This document shows positions 42,536 through 50,315 of a stretch of DNA of 64,000 bases, piece by piece. Every line of letters begins with the position of its first letter. Within the stretch, counting starts at the first letter, position 1. This stretch comes from Capsulimonadales bacterium (GTDB taxonomy: Bacteria; Armatimonadota; Armatimonadia; Armatimonadales; Armatimonadaceae). The notes under the pieces are model-generated. The model had not been told where the DNA came from, made no database searches, and saw nothing but the letters and a program-made list of their open reading frames with translations. Position numbers and translations under genes: made by a program. The DNA is taken from contig JANRLW010000075.1 in the NCBI GenBank assembly GCA_033762295.1, positions 32,197-96,196 on the forward strand, given 5' to 3'.

Positions 42536-43144
42536 TCAGTCGGGGATGGAGCATCCGATGACGGAGGTGGTAGTGGGAGCGACCGGGCGGTTCTCCGTCA
42601 GGGCGTCCAGCACCAGCCGCAGGTCCCGCCGGGAGGGCAGATGCCGCGCCTTGCCGAAATCGACGTAGCGATCGTCGATCCGTCCCTGATACACCACCTT
42701 TCCCGCACGGTCGATCACCACCGCCTCAGGCGTCCGCTGAGCCTTCCAGCGCCTGGCCAGCGTTCGCTGCGAGTCCGACAGTGCGGAGCAATGGTAACCG
42801 TACTCCCGGTAGTGCCGACGCAGTTCCGCCGTCGGGATATCGGAGTCGGCGTAAACCAGGTAGAACGTGACCTTTTTCCGTGAGAAGTCGTTGACGATCC
42901 GATCGAACTCCGGCGCGTAGGCATTGGCGATCGGGCAGTCCCGCAGGATGAACAGCAGGACGGTGGCTGTCCGCCCGGAGAAGCGATGGACGTCCGCCGT
43001 CTTACCGAACAGGTCTTTGACCGGGGCTACGCTCGAAACGGTCGGGGCGTCGCCCGTCACCGTGGACGGCGTCTGTTGCGCTACGGCCGGAACCGTGAAC
43101 GCAACGGCAAGAACGGTCAGGAGGGTCGGATTCAGTCGTTTCAT
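42536..43144 (-). CDS. Secreted redoxin (AhpC/TSA-like) domain protein
   Basis: DCPIANAY, AQRTPEAVV, YQGRIDD, IGCSI; signal peptide. Confidence 0.85.
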   Translation of the reverse strand: MKRLNPTLLTVLAVAFTVPAVAQQTPSTVTGDAPTVSSVAPVKDLFGKTADVHRFSGRTATVLLFILRDCPIANAYAPEFDRIVNDFSRKKVTFYLVYADSDIPTAELRRHYREYGYHCSALSDSQRTLARRWKAQRTPEAVVIDRAGKVVYQGRIDDRYVDFGKARHLPSRRDLRLVLDALTENRPVAPTTTSVIGCSIPD

Positions 43145-43201
43145 AGGTTTTCAGGCCCCTCTCCCAAAACGGGAGAGGGGAAGCGAGCCGAGGTCGCCGG
43201 A

Positions 43202-45661
43202 TCAGTTGCCGGAATGGAGCTGGCTTTGCGGGACGATCTGGCGGCCGATGAATTCCGAGGACCAGAACAGCTGGATGACCGCGCCGCCCCCGCCCTGGAA
43301 GAAGTCCAGCCGGATATCGTACAGCTTGCCCTCCTCCAGGAAGATGGTGCCGTTGTCGACGGTCGGAGCATGGTATGTCCAGTTGTCGATCACCGTCTTG
43401 CCGTCGATGATCAGCCGAACGCCGTCATCCGAGTTGGTGCTGAAGACATAGTTGCCACTGGCGCGCGGCTGAATCTTGCCGGTCCAGCGCACGGAGAAGT
43501 CGAACGGACCGACGCCGGCGACCGGCTGGATGCCGCCCCAGTTCGGGAAGTCGATGACGCCGTCCTTGCGGACGACGGGCGTTCCGGTCAGATCGATCCG
43601 GTTGAAATAGCTCCCGTTCAGACCGTCACCCTGACCGGGCCCGTTGTCGATCAGGTAACGAGCGGTTGCGATCGCGCTCGGCTGAGCGTTCGTGGCAAAC
43701 GCCCGCGCCTTGACGACCGCGCTCTGCGTCAGCGAGAACGGACCGGTGTAGGCGCGTGAGGCCGGGGTGGGATCGGAACCGTCCAGAGTGTAGCGAACGG
43801 TCGCGCCGGAAGCGTTGTTGGTGATCCGGACGACCAGCGGCCGGTTCGGAACCCGGGGATACTCGCCGCTCGGAGGGTCGATCGTCGGCGCGGCGGCCCA
43901 CTTCCCGATTCCGTAGACATGGAGTTCGCCGGAGAAACTGGCCATGTATACCTTGCCGTTGACGACCGTCGGCGGGGTAAACTTGGCGAAAAGACCGATA
44001 TCATCCCGTTCCGGGACCATCTTGCTGTTCCACAACTCCTTCAAAGTGACCGCATCGAAGGCGCGCAGAATGCCGGGAACGATCTTGTGAACGGCGTCGT
44101 CGTCGTACGGGTGCGCCGCCCAGAGGACGCCCGTTCCGGCCTTGCCGCCGTTCGCGGACAGCGAAAGGATGCCGCCCGGCATGCCCCACGGAACGTACAT
44201 CTCACTGGTCGCCACCGGGGTCGTTTGGAGCTGACGGGCGGTCCTGTCCAGTTTGAAGGCTTTCAGCTTATCGTTCTCGCTCCACGCATAGACCAGCGGG
44301 CCGACCGGACTTTCCCAGAAGACCGGCGACCCGTGCAGGTGGGCCGGGAAGGTCCAGAGCCACTGCGGAATCTGCGTGTCCCCGTTCGGATTGAACCTGC
44401 CCATCTTCTTCTGATCGAGCAGGTACAGCTTGCCGGCTTTGCCGCCGCCGACCAGAAGGGAGGTGCCGGGGACGAGCATCGGACCGGAAACGCCCAGGTC
44501 GGCGTCCACCCGGTTCAGCCAGTCCTGATCGAACGGAGTGAAATAGTCGATGACGTCGAACCGCATCGGGCGAACCAGGCGGTTCAGTTTGATCTTGACG
44601 AAGCTGTCACCGTAATCGACGCCCCCGGTGTTCGCGCTGAAACTGCCGTTCCCGGTCTCCAGATAGATGTTGCCCGAAGCATCGGCGGTCAGTCCCTGCC
44701 CGGACTGCCAGATGCCGCCGCCGCCGATCGGATAGCCCGACGGGTCGGTTTTGCCGTTCGGCGTGGAGCACCAGACCGCCATCGGGCGCATAAATTTGGC
44801 GTCATGCGCGAAGACCCAGCCATGGTAGGGGGTGATGTCCGAGTGCGCGCCGAAGGCCGTGTAAACGACGCTGTCCATCATCAGCAGGCTCGGACGATTC
44901 ATATGGCGGGGCGGATCGAAGGAGAGGGTGCCGTTCGGATTCGCTCCGTCCCCGGTTCCGGGCACGGTGGCCGCGAACTCGATGCCGCTGCCCGGCAGTT
45001 CCTTGCCGGTCCGGAGATCCAGTTTGCGGAGACGGCTCGGATAGCGCACGCCATTTGGCGTCTCCTCCTTCGTCTTCGTGACGCAGATAAGGAAGTTGTT
45101 GGCGACATCGATGACCGGCGTGCTGATGATGCCCACTTCGGGCCAGATATTGGTGTCCCAGCCGCCGACCTCCCAGATCGGACAGGCTTTGATCCCCTTG
45201 CTTTCGTTCAGAAACGGCGTATACCAGAGCGGTTCGCCGGCATTGGGATCGTCGGCATCGAAGGCATAGACGCTGTTATGCATCGTCGCCAGAAAGATCA
45301 CGTTACGTTTGACGCCCTTGATCGTCACTCCGGAAACGTAGAGCGGCTGTGCGTACAACTGACCGTCGACCTTCCGGCTGAACAGCTTGCCGAATCCCTC
45401 GCCACCGCCTGCGGGGGGACGGACATTCCCGGTGTTCAGAACGGTTTCCCGGAGGTTCGCGCCGGTACGGGCGTTATCGTTGTGCTGGGTGACGACGGAG
45501 AGGCGGCTGAGCGGCACCACCGTACCGGTCGCCGCCGGTTGAATCGATTCGCGGCGAACCTCCGCTCCGGGGTTCGCGGTCTGCGCTCCCGCCCCCGTGG
45601 CCATACCGACCAGGGCGAAAGCGACCAGGTTAAGTGTCGTCTGTCTTTGACTTATGCGCAT
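43202..45661 (-). CDS. Secreted PQQ-like beta-propeller + chitobiase/Fn3-associated + PA14 domain protein
   Basis: TQHNDNARTGAN, VDGQLYAQPL, GGGIWQSG, FAKFTPPTVVNGKVY; YTLDGSDP; FSVRWTG...NSDDGVRL. Confidence 0.85.
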   Translation of the reverse strand: MRISQRQTTLNLVAFALVGMATGAGAQTANPGAEVRRESIQPAATGTVVPLSRLSVVTQHNDNARTGANLRETVLNTGNVRPPAGGGEGFGKLFSRKVDGQLYAQPLYVSGVTIKGVKRNVIFLATMHNSVYAFDADDPNAGEPLWYTPFLNESKGIKACPIWEVGGWDTNIWPEVGIISTPVIDVANNFLICVTKTKEETPNGVRYPSRLRKLDLRTGKELPGSGIEFAATVPGTGDGANPNGTLSFDPPRHMNRPSLLMMDSVVYTAFGAHSDITPYHGWVFAHDAKFMRPMAVWCSTPNGKTDPSGYPIGGGGIWQSGQGLTADASGNIYLETGNGSFSANTGGVDYGDSFVKIKLNRLVRPMRFDVIDYFTPFDQDWLNRVDADLGVSGPMLVPGTSLLVGGGKAGKLYLLDQKKMGRFNPNGDTQIPQWLWTFPAHLHGSPVFWESPVGPLVYAWSENDKLKAFKLDRTARQLQTTPVATSEMYVPWGMPGGILSLSANGGKAGTGVLWAAHPYDDDAVHKIVPGILRAFDAVTLKELWNSKMVPERDDIGLFAKFTPPTVVNGKVYMASFSGELHVYGIGKWAAAPTIDPPSGEYPRVPNRPLVVRITNNASGATVRYTLDGSDPTPASRAYTGPFSLTQSAVVKARAFATNAQPSAIATARYLIDNGPGQGDGLNGSYFNRIDLTGTPVVRKDGVIDFPNWGGIQPVAGVGPFDFSVRWTGKIQPRASGNYVFSTNSDDGVRLIIDGKTVIDNWTYHAPTVDNGTIFLEEGKLYDIRLDFFQGGGGAVIQLFWSSEFIGRQIVPQSQLHSGN

Positions 45662-45667
45662 TTTCGT

Positions 45668-47047
45668 CTATCTTCCTTTGGCAGGCGGGTCGGAGACGGG
45701 CGGCCCCGGACGGGGGGCGGGTTTCGGACCGTCCGGTTCTCGTTCGTCAATATCGATTATCGGCTGGTGACGCGCGGACGGGAGACTCCGCGTCAGAATG
45801 GCCCGAGCGGCGGGCGTCGTGGGTAGAAGGCGAAGCCAGACACTACTCATCTCCTCCATGAACTCCAGTCCGGGGACCACACGGTGGGACGGCGTCCAGG
45901 GGTTGCGCGGGTTCTCCTCCGTATTATTGAAGGTAATCCGAAGCGAGAGGCGCGTTCCGGCGGGAAGGGACAGCGGCGACGGAAGACGGTACGCCTGCTT
46001 CCAGTTGGCGTCCCAGTCCGGGATGTCCAGCAGCGAGAGCGTCTTGCCGTCGGGAAGGGCGGCGGTCACGGTCACGGTTCGTGCGACAAAGTGCGCGTTC
46101 GGCACAATCTCCATCAGGCGAACCGCCGTCGGAAGGGTGAAGGAGTCGGTGAGAACGGCGGTTGATTGACGGGGCAGATACAGGGGAGCCTTACCGAGCC
46201 GCAGTATGACCGGTTCCAGCGGCGACGGGTCCTTCGAAAAGTACAGGCCGACCTGCATCCGTTCGCTCTCCGCCTTGCCGGTCGGGTGAAATCGTACCTG
46301 GAGAATAAGATCGGTCTTCGGGGTAAGCCGGTAGGCGAAGCCGGGCGGCAACGCCATGGTGACCCCTCCGGGCGACCAGTCGGCAAGGGTGCCCGCCGGG
46401 GAGGGAGACAGTCCGGCGGTAAAGCCGAAGTACCCGACCGCGCCGGAAAGCGTCTCCTGACGACGTCCCTGTCCGGTGGGGTCGGCGTAGAGAGAGACAT
46501 AGCGGATCGCGGCGGGATTGGACGGACGGAAGGCGATAGCGCGCAGACGAGCCGCTTTCCCGAGGGCGGGCAGCACGAAACAGCGGGTGGCTTCGAGAGT
46601 ATTCGGCGGAACGACGTAGGGACGGGCCATCGTCAGAACCCGATCCGGCGTCCCGAGCGGCCAGGGCGACGACGGCCCCGCCGACAGAGGGGCTATCCGT
46701 TCTCCTTCCGGAGCGCCGGCGTCCGCCCAGCGTTTGATCGTATCGCGGTCCGTTGCGCTGAGATGACGCTCCCCGCAGAAACCGGGGGTCGCCGCCTGCC
46801 AGGGCGGCATATAACCGCTCTGCGTGACCTGAACCAGTTGCCGCGCCCGTCGGTAGGCATCGCCGTAGGTGAGCAGAGGAAACGGACCGACTCGACCGGG
46901 GGCATGACAGGACACGCACGCCGATTTCAGAATAGGCGCGACATCGCGACCGAAAACCGGTGTTTCCTGTCGGGCGGACACCGACGGCATCAGGAAAACG
47001 AGAAGCAGCATCGCTCCGGGCGCCGCCTCGAGAAGGCGAAGAAGCAT
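45668..47047 (-). CDS. Cytochrome c + copper type II monooxygenase-like protein with degenerate Cu ligands
   Basis: DVAPIL..CVSCH, MPPW, WADAGAPEG, WPLGTPD, WSPG, WDANWKQAY, NNTEENPRNP, EEM. Confidence 0.8.
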   Translation of the reverse strand: MLLRLLEAAPGAMLLLVFLMPSVSARQETPVFGRDVAPILKSACVSCHAPGRVGPFPLLTYGDAYRRARQLVQVTQSGYMPPWQAATPGFCGERHLSATDRDTIKRWADAGAPEGERIAPLSAGPSSPWPLGTPDRVLTMARPYVVPPNTLEATRCFVLPALGKAARLRAIAFRPSNPAAIRYVSLYADPTGQGRRQETLSGAVGYFGFTAGLSPSPAGTLADWSPGGVTMALPPGFAYRLTPKTDLILQVRFHPTGKAESERMQVGLYFSKDPSPLEPVILRLGKAPLYLPRQSTAVLTDSFTLPTAVRLMEIVPNAHFVARTVTVTAALPDGKTLSLLDIPDWDANWKQAYRLPSPLSLPAGTRLSLRITFNNTEENPRNPWTPSHRVVPGLEFMEEMSSVWLRLLPTTPAARAILTRSLPSARHQPIIDIDEREPDGPKPAPRPGPPVSDPPAKGR

Positions 47048-47357
47048 AACCCATTATGACTTGCTTAGTTGCATTAAACAAGTACGAACGGAGGAATTTT
47101 TACTGAAGAGCTCCTTTTCGGAGCCGGCATCTCCTGCCCGCAATCCGCTCCCGGGGGAGAGGAAGGTATACTGAACGCCGTACCTCCTTCGCGAAAGCCA
47201 CCGGGAAACGTTCGGGCGGGAAGCGACGTAGAGGAATGCGGGTGAGGAACGCAACCCCGTCGTCCGCTGACGTGTCCGATGAAATGGGATGTTACGCAGA
47301 CAGGAATTCAGTGGTTTGAATCGCATCGCAGCAACTTCGAATATTAAAGGAAAACAT

Positions 47358-48575
47358 ATGACTAAGCCGATCGTATCCTTGGGGCTGATCGCCTTCGCGG
47401 TCTCGGTCGCCGGGTGTTCGCGACCGCAACCGGTCACGATGGCGCCGCCCGTTCCGCAGCCGCCGGTTCAGCAGGCGCCCGCGCCGGGTAGCGCCGGCGT
47501 GTTCAACTGGCAGGATGTTCCGCAGGGCCAGCAGGTGCCGATCAATCGCGCCATCTTCGATCAGGGGGGCTACCAGATGTATGCCGCCTCCGGCGAAACG
47601 ATCGTGGTGCCGTTCGTCAACCAGAACATGTACGTCATGAAGTTCGGCAGGTCGAATAACGGCGGGATGTATTTTGTCAATGAGGGCGCCGCGCCCACGC
47701 TGTATGTGCCGAACGGCGGCTTCCTGGAGAATGCGGCGGCGCAGAACGCCCGGTGGTATCCGTTTTCAAACAACTATTCCTATACCCGTCCGGTCTATAT
47801 CGGACTGGCGCCCACGTGGGGCGATTATCTGGCCATGGGATGGTACCCCGGAATGACCTACTATGGCGGCTACTGGGGCTATAACCCGTGGCGACCCGGT
47901 TTCGCCTTCACGCCGATGATCGGCCTGAACTTCAACATCGGCGGACGACCGTATTACGGCTGGGACTCCTACCGGAACTACTACACGTACAATTCCGCCG
48001 GACGGATCGGCTGGAACAATCGGTCGAGCTACAACTACGCCAGCGTTAATCGCCGCTCGCCGGGCACCGGCTCGTTCGGAAGGACGTCGTTCGGCTCCAC
48101 GGGTCGTTCCACCGGCTCCTTCGGCTCCACAGGTCGTTCCGGCGGGTCCTCGTTCGGGCGTTCGTCGGGTTCGACCGGCTCGTTCGGTGGCAGCCGCAAC
48201 AACTTCGGGACGGCGTCGAATCGACCCGGCACGGGCTTCTTCGGTTCCGGCGGTTCGTCGTCGTTCGGTCGATCGTCGGGCGGCTCCTCGTTCGGTAGCG
48301 GTTCCTCGTCCTTTGGCAGCCGACCCTCCTCCGGTTCGTTCGGCGGCTCCTCGTCCGGATTCGGCACGACCTCCCGATCCCGCGGCTCCTTTGGCAGCGG
48401 CTCCTCCGGTTTCTCCGGCGGTTCGTCGTTCGGCCGGTCTTCCGGTAGCTCGTTCGGTGGCGGCTCATCCTCGTTCGGACGCTCGTCGGGTAGTTCGTCG
48501 TCGTTCGGTCGGTCTTCCGGGAGTTCTTCGTTCGGTCGGTCTTCCGGCAGCTTCGGCGGCGGACGGCGACGTTAG
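47358..48575 (+). CDS. Lipoprotein with Y/W/G/N-rich segment and long Gly/Ser FG-repeat tail
   Basis: VAGC lipobox; about 19 FG dipeptides in SSFGRSSG-type repeats; AAAGGA RBS. Confidence 0.85.
   Translation: MTKPIVSLGLIAFAVSVAGCSRPQPVTMAPPVPQPPVQQAPAPGSAGVFNWQDVPQGQQVPINRAIFDQGGYQMYAASGETIVVPFVNQNMYVMKFGRSNNGGMYFVNEGAAPTLYVPNGGFLENAAAQNARWYPFSNNYSYTRPVYIGLAPTWGDYLAMGWYPGMTYYGGYWGYNPWRPGFAFTPMIGLNFNIGGRPYYGWDSYRNYYTYNSAGRIGWNNRSSYNYASVNRRSPGTGSFGRTSFGSTGRSTGSFGSTGRSGGSSFGRSSGSTGSFGGSRNNFGTASNRPGTGFFGSGGSSSFGRSSGGSSFGSGSSSFGSRPSSGSFGGSSSGFGTTSRSRGSFGSGSSGFSGGSSFGRSSGSSFGGGSSSFGRSSGSSSSFGRSSGSSSFGRSSGSFGGGRRR
48067..48560 (+). repeat. Coding low-complexity repeat (tcgttcgg... = SFG units)
   Basis: Recurrent tc(g/c)ttcgg(c/t) codons encoding SFG. 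Confidence 0.85.
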
Positions 48576-48590: not shown

Positions 48591-49037
48591 ATGAACGAAC
48601 TGATTTTTCGTACCGGCGGAAGCTGGGAGACGACGACCCTGTTCAACCGGGGAATGGAAGTGAACACCGCGCAGTTGTTCGTCGATCTGCGGGCGGGGCG
48701 CGACGAGTGGGGCGATCCGATTCGCGGCGGCATCTTCGAGGGGGCGGACCTGACCGCAATCGTCCGCCCCGCCGAGGACCCCTATTCGCCCTGGGACGTG
48801 CTCCCCGGACGACTGATGATGCAGTTTCCCGGGTACGAACTCATCCTGGAAAACTACCATCCGGCCGTTTACCTGGATCATACGCGCGTTTTCATGAACG
48901 GTGAGAATATCACGGACCGCGTGATCGACCTCTATGTCGATATCAATGCCGTGGATGACGTCGTTTCCGCGTATGTCACCGTCTACAAGAGTCACTTCTT
49001 CCGCCGTGACGAAGTGATTACCCATAACATTATTTAG
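48591..49037 (+). CDS. Hypothetical protein (internally duplicated beta-rich motif)
   Basis: 148 aa, GGAGG RBS, 15 nt after upstream stop. Confidence 0.8.
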   Translation: MNELIFRTGGSWETTTLFNRGMEVNTAQLFVDLRAGRDEWGDPIRGGIFEGADLTAIVRPAEDPYSPWDVLPGRLMMQFPGYELILENYHPAVYLDHTRVFMNGENITDRVIDLYVDINAVDDVVSAYVTVYKSHFFRRDEVITHNII

Positions 49038-49057: not shown

Positions 49058-49579
49058 ATGTTTGGTGGGCCCAAAACCAGCGCGACACCGCCGCCGGGCG
49101 ACGACGGGGGCAGACCGCAGACCGCCCGGGTCGCTCAAATCACGGGGACTCTGACCCATGTTTTCGTTCACGGAAAGGGCGCGGGAAGCCTGGACGTCTT
49201 CGTCAACGGACAGCCGCTTCTCTCCGGACAGGTCGAGAGCCTGAGCGTCGAGATCGTCGCGCCCGGAGAACGGGACGACGGCACTCTGACCGGAATCCTG
49301 TCCTATTTTGAGTCCGGCGGCGACGGCGGGCGAACCAACAAGAGCCTGTCGCTGTTTCCCGGAACGGTCGAACTGATCGCCGAAAATCGCCGGGTCTCCG
49401 TGACCTGCGCGGAGGAGGGGTCGTTCGAGGGCCTTTTCCTGCGTTTCGGAACTGAGAACGACGGGATCGGATTGGAGGCGAGCGGCGTGAAAAGCCTGCG
49501 TATCGTGGTGACGCCCGAACTGCGCGATGTCCGTCTGGTCTGGGTCGAGGACGGGCGCGAGGATATTCTCCTCGGATAG
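49058..49579 (+). CDS. Hypothetical protein, apparently related to 48591-49037
   Basis: 173 aa, AGGAGG RBS; VFVNGQ...VESLSVEIVA and FPG..ELIAEN motifs shared with the upstream protein. Confidence 0.8.
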   Translation: MFGGPKTSATPPPGDDGGRPQTARVAQITGTLTHVFVHGKGAGSLDVFVNGQPLLSGQVESLSVEIVAPGERDDGTLTGILSYFESGGDGGRTNKSLSLFPGTVELIAENRRVSVTCAEEGSFEGLFLRFGTENDGIGLEASGVKSLRIVVTPELRDVRLVWVEDGREDILLG

Positions 49580-49601
49580 CCCGCTTCCGGCCCGCGAAAA
49601 G

Positions 49602-49635
49602 AAACCCCGGACTTTCCGTCCGGGGTTTTTGTTTT
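49602..49635 (+). terminator. Intrinsic terminator closing the 47358-49579 operon
   Basis: aaaccccggac-tttcc-gtccggggttt followed by ttgtttt. Confidence 0.8.
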
Positions 49636-49691
49636 CCTCCGTGGCAAACAAAAGTATGATATAATATTGTGTATTTTTGAAAGGGAAAAGT

Positions 49692-50315
49692 ATGAAAAAG
49701 GAGATCGCGAAGTCGAGCGATGATCGCGCGTTCGACGGGCTGTCCAATCGGGAAATGGCGGCGATCCTTTTCAATATCGCGACGGTGTTGCGTGAGGAGG
49801 GCAATGTCAATCCCTGGCGAACGGCGGCGTACGAGCGGGGCGCGCGGGCGTTGATGGGCTACCCGACCGAGGCAACGGCAGTGCTTGCGGAGCAAAAGAA
49901 CGTACCGTTCCGACGATGGCAGCATATCGGCAAACGTCTGCAGCGGAAGATCCGGGAGATGGCGACGGTCGGTGAACTGGCGCAGTACCGGGAACTCCTC
50001 GGGACCCTGCCGACCCATCGTCAGGAACTGATGACCCTGCCCGGGATCGGTCCGCGAACGGCGGATCACCTGCATCGGGTTCTCGGGGTTTCGACCGCTG
50101 CGGAACTGGTCGCCGCGGCGCGGGACGGACGCCTTCGGTCGGTACGGGGCTTCGGCCCCCGTCGGGTGGCCCTGCTGGCGGCCGTCGGTCCGCCGGACGC
50201 CGCTTCACGCCATCTGTTCAGCGATCAGGAGGTCGAAGCCGCGGTCGCCGGTCCCGACGGCGCGGCGATGGTAACCACCGATTCGCCCGGAATCTCCACC
50301 ACGTCGCCCGCGTAG
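49692..50315 (+). CDS. Stand-alone PolX N-terminal (8 kDa + HhH) protein lacking the polymerase core
   Basis: SNREMAAIL..IA.VL...NPWRTAAYERGA, HIGKRL, LPGIGPRTA, VRGFGPR; no nucleotidyltransferase or PHP domain; tgaTATAAT upstream. Confidence 0.8.
   Translation: MKKEIAKSSDDRAFDGLSNREMAAILFNIATVLREEGNVNPWRTAAYERGARALMGYPTEATAVLAEQKNVPFRRWQHIGKRLQRKIREMATVGELAQYRELLGTLPTHRQELMTLPGIGPRTADHLHRVLGVSTAAELVAAARDGRLRSVRGFGPRRVALLAAVGPPDAASRHLFSDQEVEAAVAGPDGAAMVTTDSPGISTTSPA

Follow-up and report, generated by a model that had tools for sequence, protein, structure and literature searches.

A putative Armatimonadota lipoprotein with an arginine-rich, FG-patterned tail suggests a new envelope module built on a sticky tail

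Exported bacterial proteins with glycine-, arginine- and aromatic-rich tails are common, and to our knowledge there is no agreed job for any such tail. DUF3300, WXXGXW-repeat, DUF1517/FLAP1, TPM and Tim44-type proteins are exported and combine an aromatic block with an Arg/Gly/Ser tail, with DUF1517 and Tim44-type proteins running in the order signal peptide, tract, membrane helix; the YgiB/YjfM lipoproteins (DUF1190) end in a basic, Gly/Ser-rich C-terminal tail. Here we describe a protein of this kind from a Capsulimonadales bacterium of the phylum Armatimonadota, encoded in a 64,000-nucleotide stretch of DNA (contig JANRLW010000075.1 of assembly GCA_033762295.1, positions 32,197 to 96,196 of the forward strand; hereafter the window, from whose first letter coordinates are counted). 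It is a 405-amino-acid (aa) lipoprotein (P0001; open reading frame 47358..48575, + strand) whose tail carries 19 phenylalanine-glycine (FG) pairs, and it is followed by two small genes, dn1 and dn2. The kind of protein is known; what is new is its domain, its acid-free Phe/Arg-patterned tract, the occurrence of two alternative carriers of that tract, and the link to dn1 and dn2. Because the FG/Arg tract is kept on the lipoprotein or on a second carrier, F12, wherever dn1 and dn2 occur, the evidence favours an envelope module with a sticky tail, of a type not described before, over a gel like that of the nuclear pore. In titles and abstracts of the open-access literature, we found no description of this family or of FG-tailed bacterial lipoproteins.

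Judged from its sequence, 47358..48575 is a real, conserved gene for a putatively membrane-anchored exported protein. A ribosome-binding site, AAGGA (47347..47351, +), lies 7 nucleotides (nt) 5' of the start, and the protein begins MTKP, with a basic N-region, a hydrophobic stretch and the lipobox VAG-C ending at Cys20, which together make a signal peptide of lipoprotein type (47358..47417, +); a lipobox of the form [LVSTGA]xGC is present in 20 of 20 genome orthologues. From these features we infer export and lipidation. An upstream ATG at 47289, which would give a 428-aa open reading frame, was rejected as the start, as the ribosome-binding site and the orthologue starts both point to 47358. 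Beyond residue 25 no second hydrophobic segment was found, the best 19-residue hydropathy being 0.67. The signal peptide is followed on the same strand by a Pro/Gln/Ala linker (residues 21-47, 47418..47498) that is 32% Pro, has a conserved MAPP motif in the alignment and is modelled with a predicted local distance difference test score (pLDDT) of about 50; by a folded exported domain (residues 48-222, 47499..48023), delimited by alignment and an AlphaFold2 model; and by a disordered SFG/Arg tail (residues 233-405, 48054..48572), recognised from composition and model. An earlier note on this DNA, made from the letters alone, had picked out the VAGC lipobox, the Pro/Gln linker, about 19 FG pairs, the Gly/Ser/Arg/Thr tail and its GGGRRR end, and all of these are confirmed here. 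Metatranscriptomes held no contig on the lipoprotein gene and a single 215-nt contig on dn1 (one dataset, a small share), which is not expression evidence.

The 173-aa tail is made up of Ser (37.6%), Gly (30.1%), Phe (12.1%), Arg (10.4%) and Thr (5.8%). It contains no Asp, Glu or Lys and 18 Arg, for a net charge of +18, and closes with GGGRRR. The 19 FG pairs lie within residues 240-400 at spacings of 5-13 (median 10), every Phe has an Arg within 2-8 residues, and there is no Tyr. The FG excess was evident against 10,000 shuffles of the tail, none of which reached the observed 19 (mean 6.3, maximum 14); SFG occurs 16 times compared with 2.4 in shuffles, and the aromatic residues are more evenly spaced than in shuffled tails (coefficient of variation 0.29 versus 0.86). 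Of the relatives with a lipobox, 59 could be scored, and 49 of these show even aromatic spacing too (p < 0.01), the median FG spacing being 10; the looser lipobox rule applied here takes in 62 proteins, some of them with Sec-type peptides, and a stricter rule 56. The lipoprotein frame is the FG-densest of the genome's 32,920 stop-to-stop frames (12 FG per 100 aa). Its tail DNA contains just four tandem arrays, short and imperfect (scores 44-82), and the tail is not a simple DNA repeat expansion. Most of residues 241-405 have a pLDDT below 50. Lys makes up 0 of the 18 basic residues in the tail, compared with 28% of the basic residues in 13 neighbouring genes.

To ask how far this pattern is shared, we collected relatives of the folded domain: of 336 candidates, 290 qualified at E ≤ 0.001, and a count by clusters at 50% identity gave 182. 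Among the best 120 listed, those with a named taxon are almost all Armatimonadota, one being labelled both Cytophagales and Armatimonadota, and the domain turned up in 24 of the 201 Armatimonadota genomes sampled. Tails were compared in 142 aligned proteins less 8 that are short at the N-terminus, leaving 56 relatives with a strict lipobox and 78 others, mostly with a Sec-type peptide. At least 8 FG pairs were present in 51/56 strict-lipobox relatives (group median 13.5) versus 7/78 others, at most one acidic residue in 52/56 versus 8/78, an RRR, RHR or RRH end in 51/56 versus 5/78, and at most one Lys in 52/56 versus 58/78; the 78 others have His/Asp-containing tails. Conservation of the tail in orthologues had been set beforehand as a test, and the tail passed it: 19 of 20 genome orthologues have at least 7 FG pairs and all 20 an R[RH]R end, with a median of 13.5 FG over 142 aa. 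What is kept in the tail is its composition, not an alignable sequence. Because this composition is shared by the lipobox group, the aromatic residues are evenly spaced and Arg is used rather than Lys, the tail is under selection for both composition and pattern. Other exported or membrane proteins of this genome (G000) carry Gly/Phe-rich segments of GGFGG type (C77:79910-81700(-), C76:46644-47063(-), C107:15174-16259(-), C101:30348-31331(+), C27:1279-3099(-) and C34:43603-45657(-)); one is secretin-like by eye, and the segments are Gly-only, not of the Ser/Arg type. FG-rich segments may be an envelope theme across the lineage.

Nup98-type FG domains resemble the tail in their high FG density, their Ser/Gly/Thr spacers and their near lack of acidic residues. 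In the available part of PMC4283134, ten Nup98 domains have 6.3-10.3 FG per 100 residues and roughly one FG per 12.5 residues is the mark of such a domain; the tail, with 11 per 100 aa, is at or above these values. The same part of that source gives the Nup98 domains a median of 43 FG over 549 residues, of which 2.5% are charged, and here the tail differs: it is 10.4% charged, all of it Arg and four times the Nup98 value, and its 19 FG in 173 aa amount to under half the FG count on a third of the length. Its share of Phe, Ile, Leu, Val and Met (FILVM) is 12.1% versus 13-17%, it has no GLFG or Leu, and no pore or scaffold gene lies nearby. The Pfam model Nucleoporin_FG matched neither P0001 nor any of 74 relatives.

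By analogy, the tail would work chemically like the FG/RG sticker-spacer regions of Ddx4 and hnRNPA1. Ddx4, in the part of PMC4352761 at hand, has FG pairs 8-11 residues apart inside basic blocks and near Arg, and the tail shows the corresponding arrangement, its FG pairs regularly spaced and close to Arg within a disordered Gly/Ser chain. It differs from these regions in lacking acidic blocks and Tyr, in its higher net charge per residue (NCPR, +0.104), and in belonging to a bacterial, exported, lipid-anchored protein without homology to either. Ddx4 also needs blocks of opposing charge (PMC4352761, same excerpt), and for regions of the hnRNPA1 type Tyr has been found to be the stronger sticker of the two aromatics Tyr and Phe, with phase separation reduced by net charge (10.1101/2021.01.01.425046, as far as its accessible text goes). 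A Phe-only chain with a charge of +18 would therefore associate only weakly with itself and bind polyanions well. That an exported bacterial protein can phase-separate through its Phe residues has a precedent in Escherichia coli CsgF (available section of PMC10133297); it belongs to another family with another composition, and curli genes were not seen beside the module in the 21 genomic neighbourhoods (8-17 kb) that were compared.

Closer to home, YgiB/YjfM share with P0001 the lipoprotein character and belong to GspS/PspA operons (operon context from the accessible portion of PMC11237479), while the tail here is 173 aa long with 19 FG. PF06693 (DUF1190) matched neither P0001, nor its 74 relatives, nor anything in the whole genome, with positive controls in E. 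coli and Caulobacter. GspS, PspA, DUF350, Band-7 and CesT were none of them recurrent beside the module in the 21 neighbourhoods, and the genome's two PspA genes and its GspS-lipoprotein pair sit on other contigs. With neither the domain match nor the neighbourhood, the protein is not a typical DUF1190 member, an identity that the earlier note had named as one that would undo its proposal. On another contig, C28:6026-6265(-) encodes a 79-aa lipoprotein with an ISG-C lipobox, two further Cys and a short GGFG tail, directly upstream of a GSP_synth gene (C28:4884-6020(-)), which together look like a miniature YgiB/YgiC-type pair missed by Pfam DUF1190. DUF3300 and the other exported families named with it at the outset are similar in having a signal peptide, a Tyr/Trp/Gly stretch and a polycationic disordered tract ending in Gly-Arg, and F12 has the layout of DUF1517 and Tim44-type proteins. 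The difference is that here the block is folded and the tract is Phe-patterned, acid-free and tied to dn1/dn2; Pfam models of the DUF3300, WXXGXW and DUF1517 type matched neither the lipoproteins (P0001 and 74 relatives) nor six F12 proteins.

The AlphaFold2 model, built from 142 aligned relatives, came out alike in five versions, with a mean pLDDT of 65.8-68.5 over the whole protein and 92-98 in every block of residues 51-220. The Y/W/G/N stretch (residues 151-222, 47808..48023, +), which the earlier note took for a separate prion-like, low-complexity segment, is by alignment, model and conservation the second half of this folded domain. It is modelled as helix, hairpins and helix; Trp162 is invariant, and A151, P152, M160, G161, Y163, M166, G170, G171, G195, Y205 and Y208 are nearly so. 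Column conservation is 0.71 at residues 151-175, compared with 0.70 and 0.63 in the first half, and 0.49 at residues 176-210. The ESM Atlas model of the full-length protein, made from a single sequence, is poor (pLDDT 0.39), which runs counter to the folded-domain view. The unit 48-222 is duplicated in tandem in P0121, P0123 and P0124 and is fused in relatives to NPCBM, 3-keto-disaccharide hydrolase, Cu-amine-oxidase-N and a zf-HC2 anti-sigma N-terminus; since it is duplicated and fused whole, it is one mobile exported module. In a single case, P0234, the domain stands at the C-terminus of a zf-HC2 anti-sigma factor, after a hydrophobic stretch, much like an extracytoplasmic sensor.

Searches with the lipoprotein gave no match above cut-off in Pfam, NCBIfam or PHROGs, and a sequence search of the PDB gave 0 matches at E ≤ 1. 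A fold search with the full 405-aa model reached a best Z of 3.4 (root-mean-square deviation 3.4, 57 aligned, OB-like, residues 44-118). Foldseek, run with the whole 405-aa model and with the dn1 model, returned nothing at E ≤ 0.001, a result that says nothing on a new versus a different fold. In the ESM Atlas, residues 46-232 had a best score of 0.85, to be taken as leads only, and a DUF3300 row at 0.79 was below the bar.

The operon runs in the order lipoprotein, dn1, dn2, with gaps of 15 and 20 nt, and neither of the last two products has a signal peptide or a membrane segment. The module's marker gene, dn1 (48591..49037, +), encodes 148 aa with a net charge of -11, and dn2 (49058..49579, +) encodes 173 aa with a net charge of -9; a 13-pair hairpin with a T run at 49600..49630 (+), which matches the consensus of an intrinsic terminator, putatively marks the operon end. 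Acidity is general in both families (-10 to -17 for dn1 and -5 to -9 for dn2, in 17/17 orthologues each), and the gaps between the genes are 0-181 nt in most metagenome loci. The dn1 model is all-beta with a pLDDT of 89; its best fold-search Z was 3.7 (root-mean-square deviation 5.4, 75 aligned), and it had no usable ESM Atlas match. Neither dn1 nor dn2 gave anything above cut-off in Pfam, NCBIfam or PHROGs, and none of the dn1 relatives lay on viral contigs. Comparing the dn1 and dn2 profiles gave a probability of 32% (E = 5e-4, 50 columns), a hint of a common repeat unit; the predicted dn1-dn2 complex scored 0.20 against a mark of 0.32 and was not used either way. The dn2 protein opens with MFG (49058-49066), as do 13 of the 17 orthologues aligned; a Pro/Ala linker that varies between them comes next. 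At eight loci (L038, L040, L042, L032, L051, L057, L059 and L084), mostly of family f8, a secreted M48 peptidase gene adjoins dn2 or the lipoprotein gene, with the Pfam match checked in L040 only.

The second carrier, F12, is unrelated to the lipoprotein and has the features of a single-pass membrane protein with an exported N-terminal FG/Arg tract. Its signal peptide leads into an RRGGG/ARGG-SFG tract and then a Tyr/Trp/Pro stretch, after which come a single membrane helix and a short basic end. Over 19 proteins, its FG region has a median of 93 aa and 9 FG (Gly 39.5%, Ser 29.5%, Phe 11.6%, Arg 8.4%) and is acid-free in all 19. Arg gathers at the free end in both carriers, N-terminal in F12 and as the C-terminal RRR in the lipoprotein, a mirror image. 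Six F12 proteins gave no Pfam or NCBIfam family match above cut-off; one of them scored against Nucleoporin_FG at E = 6.5e-4 with 20.9 bits, below the cut-off of 32.2. F12 copies beside dn1/dn2 (for example, L040:6217-6912, L051:6510-7199 and L079:1174-1752) retain a cytoplasmic end RxRY[TS][TS]Y, which is absent from three operon-distant F12 of genus g9, from L062, whose genome lacks dn2, and from L063. An R-x-x-Y-N stretch at residues 216-228 of the lipoproteins resembles this end, perhaps by chance. At L062:3821-7320 (genome G053), a diverged dn1 and F12 lie directly 3' of groES-groEL-like genes. A distant F12 relative, P0402 (39% identity), has a Lys-rich tract in place of Arg/FG, and the family may reach beyond this lineage.

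Across the 201 genomes of the phylum, dn1 is found in 30 and dn2 in 29, in single copy and, even when apart, in the same genomes except G053. All 30 dn1 genomes encode a carrier, the lipoprotein in 20 and F12 in 18; F12 is present in the 10 dn1 genomes without the lipoprotein and in 8 with it, and the genome of this window has the lipoprotein and no F12. Lipoprotein, dn1 and dn2 stand together in 18 of the 21 neighbourhoods, where no family besides dn1, dn2 and F12 is common to more than 5. At the genome loci, which number 31 (the 30 dn1 genomes plus L063), a carrier adjoins dn1 in 28. The metagenome set comprises the best 80 of 109 loci (42 distinct at 90%), and an FG carrier is adjacent in 72 of these 80 and in 43 of the 46 whose flanks extend 500 nt or more upstream and 700 nt or more downstream. 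Of the lipoprotein copies beside dn1, 1 of 20 in genomes and 3 of 42 in metagenomes are FG-poor (L046, L120, L129 and L131), all with a downstream FG protein. Scanning genome contigs with dn1 alone gave two loci, of which L063 (Fimbriimonadales, with F12) is real and L064 is weak (E = 1e-4) and was not used. In five dn1-less genomes, a strict DNA pattern for the tail end gave nothing, the pattern being too strict to inform.

We tentatively favour the reading that this lipid-anchored exported protein joins a new folded binding domain to a long polycationic sticker-spacer tail, which would act as an envelope-tethered, multivalent binder of polyanions with dn1 and dn2 as its cytoplasmic arm. The tail would be the working part of a three- or four-gene envelope module, and relatives may get the same tract from F12. 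Its evenly spaced Phe and Arg on a Ser/Gly chain would bind anionic envelope material weakly and many times over, with phospholipid head groups, peptidoglycan, lipopolysaccharide and other polyanions as candidate ligands; it could tether or cross-link envelope layers, and any clustering there may be complex coacervation, not the formation of a self-cohesive gel. Since the two carriers have been seen to share no feature but the tract, and no part of the mature lipoprotein is cytoplasmic, the simplest role for dn1 and dn2 would be to hold the Arg-rich tract shielded until it has passed through Sec or while it does so. Of all residues Arg passes Sec most slowly, and secreted proteins contain less of it (accessible part of PMC10465204); this cost therefore suggests guanidinium-specific binding to phosphates, carboxylates or aromatic rings. 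Fusions of the domain to NPCBM, to a 3-keto-disaccharide hydrolase and to an anti-sigma zinc finger would fit an extracytoplasmic binding module. The earlier note had proposed an envelope-anchored phase-separating, amyloid or polyanion-binding protein; polyanion binding is the best supported of these options, and the amyloid is not borne out. The operon partners and the second FG carrier had escaped that note.

Several points weigh against this reading. No fold match guides function, and the ligand, the coacervation and the contact with dn1/dn2 are what we infer. As dn1 and dn2 are predicted to lie across the membrane from the mature tail, direct contact would need a pre-export step, and their charge is weakened as an argument by the many cytoplasmic proteins that are acidic, which makes it unspecific. 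Gly/Phe-rich segments are common among other exported proteins of this genome. The lipoprotein of L046 keeps its Arg and a GGRRR end with 1 FG, and charge may therefore matter more than FG. In genome G148, which has no dn1, a Sec-type paralogue carries 25 FG, so FG tails do not need dn1; among the four domain-bearing genomes without the lipoprotein, all domain copies were seen in G148 and G184, one of two in G175 and two of three in G053. No carrier is adjacent to dn1 at 3 of the 31 genome loci (L053, L060 and L061) and at 3 of the 46 metagenome loci; the carriers of L053, L060 and L061 are elsewhere in the genome, and at L053 an acyltransferase-like frame follows dn1 while F12 is elsewhere in G022. 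Lastly, the genomes are kin: co-occurrence is confined to five families of one phylum, with few independent losses. The small hypergeometric values (0.0015 by genome and 0.005 by genus) for that reason overstate the association.

A possible but doubtful alternative is a co-regulated envelope-stress or scaffold unit without contact between tail and dn1/dn2. Here the domain would sense or bind an envelope ligand, the tail would serve as a cationic, flexible anchor comparable to the short, Gly-rich ones of YgiB- or TPM-type proteins, and dn1/dn2 would act in the cytoplasm, docking on the RxRY[TS][TS]Y end of F12 where F12 exists. PspA-linked operons do combine lipoproteins, low-complexity segments and intracellular beta-rich proteins (available part of PMC11237479), the F12 motif past the membrane helix is well conserved, and in P0234 an anti-sigma zinc finger and a hydrophobic stretch precede the domain. 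PspA, GspS, DUF350 and Band-7 genes are nonetheless not recurrent beside the module in the 21 neighbourhoods, this genome's PspA and GspS being on other contigs, and the retention of both dn1 and dn2 in lipoprotein-only genomes is left unexplained.

Two further readings put dn1 and dn2 in direct contact with the tract, and we consider each of them unlikely. In the first, the FG/Arg tract would condense, by means of Phe and Arg, into a layer at the membrane or in the periplasm; dn1 and dn2 would be receptors specialised for the tract, preventing it from coming out of solution before it reaches Sec, and the MFG of dn2 would be a decoy. If true, this would be a bacterial pair of FG domain and FG-binding protein that arose separately from the nuclear pore, with two interchangeable carriers. 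In the second, the Arg-rich tail would cross Sec slowly or not at all, so that the protein would remain threaded or anchored with its tail on the cytoplasmic side, to be read by dn1/dn2 or RNA as a monitor of export capacity or proton-motive force. Its 18 Arg, lack of acidic residues and RRR end do sit badly with the rule that pre-proteins cross Sec net negative (PMC10465204, in its accessible part), and the closely packed partner genes encode acidic, signal-less proteins. Such a topology, though, has no second hydrophobic segment to hold it; the F12 tract, between a cleavable-looking signal peptide and a membrane helix with basic residues, would be outside; and no sec gene recurs in the 21 neighbourhoods.

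Somewhat harder to credit is a surface or matrix adhesin, in which the domain would bind glycans and the tail extracellular DNA or polysaccharide. The aromatic-rich domain is fused to NPCBM and 3-keto-disaccharide hydrolase in paralogues, and Phe-driven condensates are described on the bacterial surface for CsgF (PMC10133297, same section), but an adhesin would not explain the need for cytoplasmic partners, the 21 neighbourhoods show no recurrent gene for secretion, a glycosyltransferase or a pilus, and the inner-membrane helix of F12 would put its tract in the periplasm. We regard as very unlikely the nucleoporin-like cohesive hydrogel, a selective barrier in the periplasm or at the surface, that the earlier note had put forward. 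FG density, even spacing and the weak Nucleoporin_FG score of one F12 are what speak for it; charge, length, FG count and FILVM share are off the Nup98 values as far as the available text of PMC4283134 gives them, the lipoproteins have no Nucleoporin_FG match, and the NCPR, the Phe-only stickers and the want of opposing charge blocks would weaken self-association (10.1101/2021.01.01.425046 and PMC4352761, both in part). With four times the charge of the cohesive Nup98 domains, the tail makes a barrier of this type improbable. A functional amyloid seeded by the Y/W/G/N segment is barely credible, since the Tyr (17%), Gly (16%), Asn (11%) and Trp (7%) of residues 151-232 and the poor Atlas model are set against high pLDDT over residues 151-220, positional conservation and the duplication and shuffling of 48-222 as one module.

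The module brings a long-ignored class of tails within reach of testing, as the tract has passed between two unrelated carriers and its two small partner genes provide a genetic handle. The locus supplies three to four protein families without a family or fold match, and selection on the tail is visible in its freedom from acidic residues, its use of Arg and not Lys, its even Phe spacing and the Arg cluster at its free end. It opens the questions of sticker-spacer tails as envelope tethers or condensates and of Sec export of a strongly basic tail.

Around the operon, the window holds a divergent run of three genes for exported proteins (42536-47047, - strand): a cytochrome-c-like/monooxygenase-like protein (45668-47047), an Fn3/PA14-domain protein (43202-45661) and a redoxin (42536-43144). 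This trio is not kept beside the module in the other neighbourhoods. On the other side, at 49677-50315 (+) and with no match for the catalytic domain, lies the gene for a stand-alone helix-hairpin-helix protein that resembles the N-terminal part of a family X polymerase.

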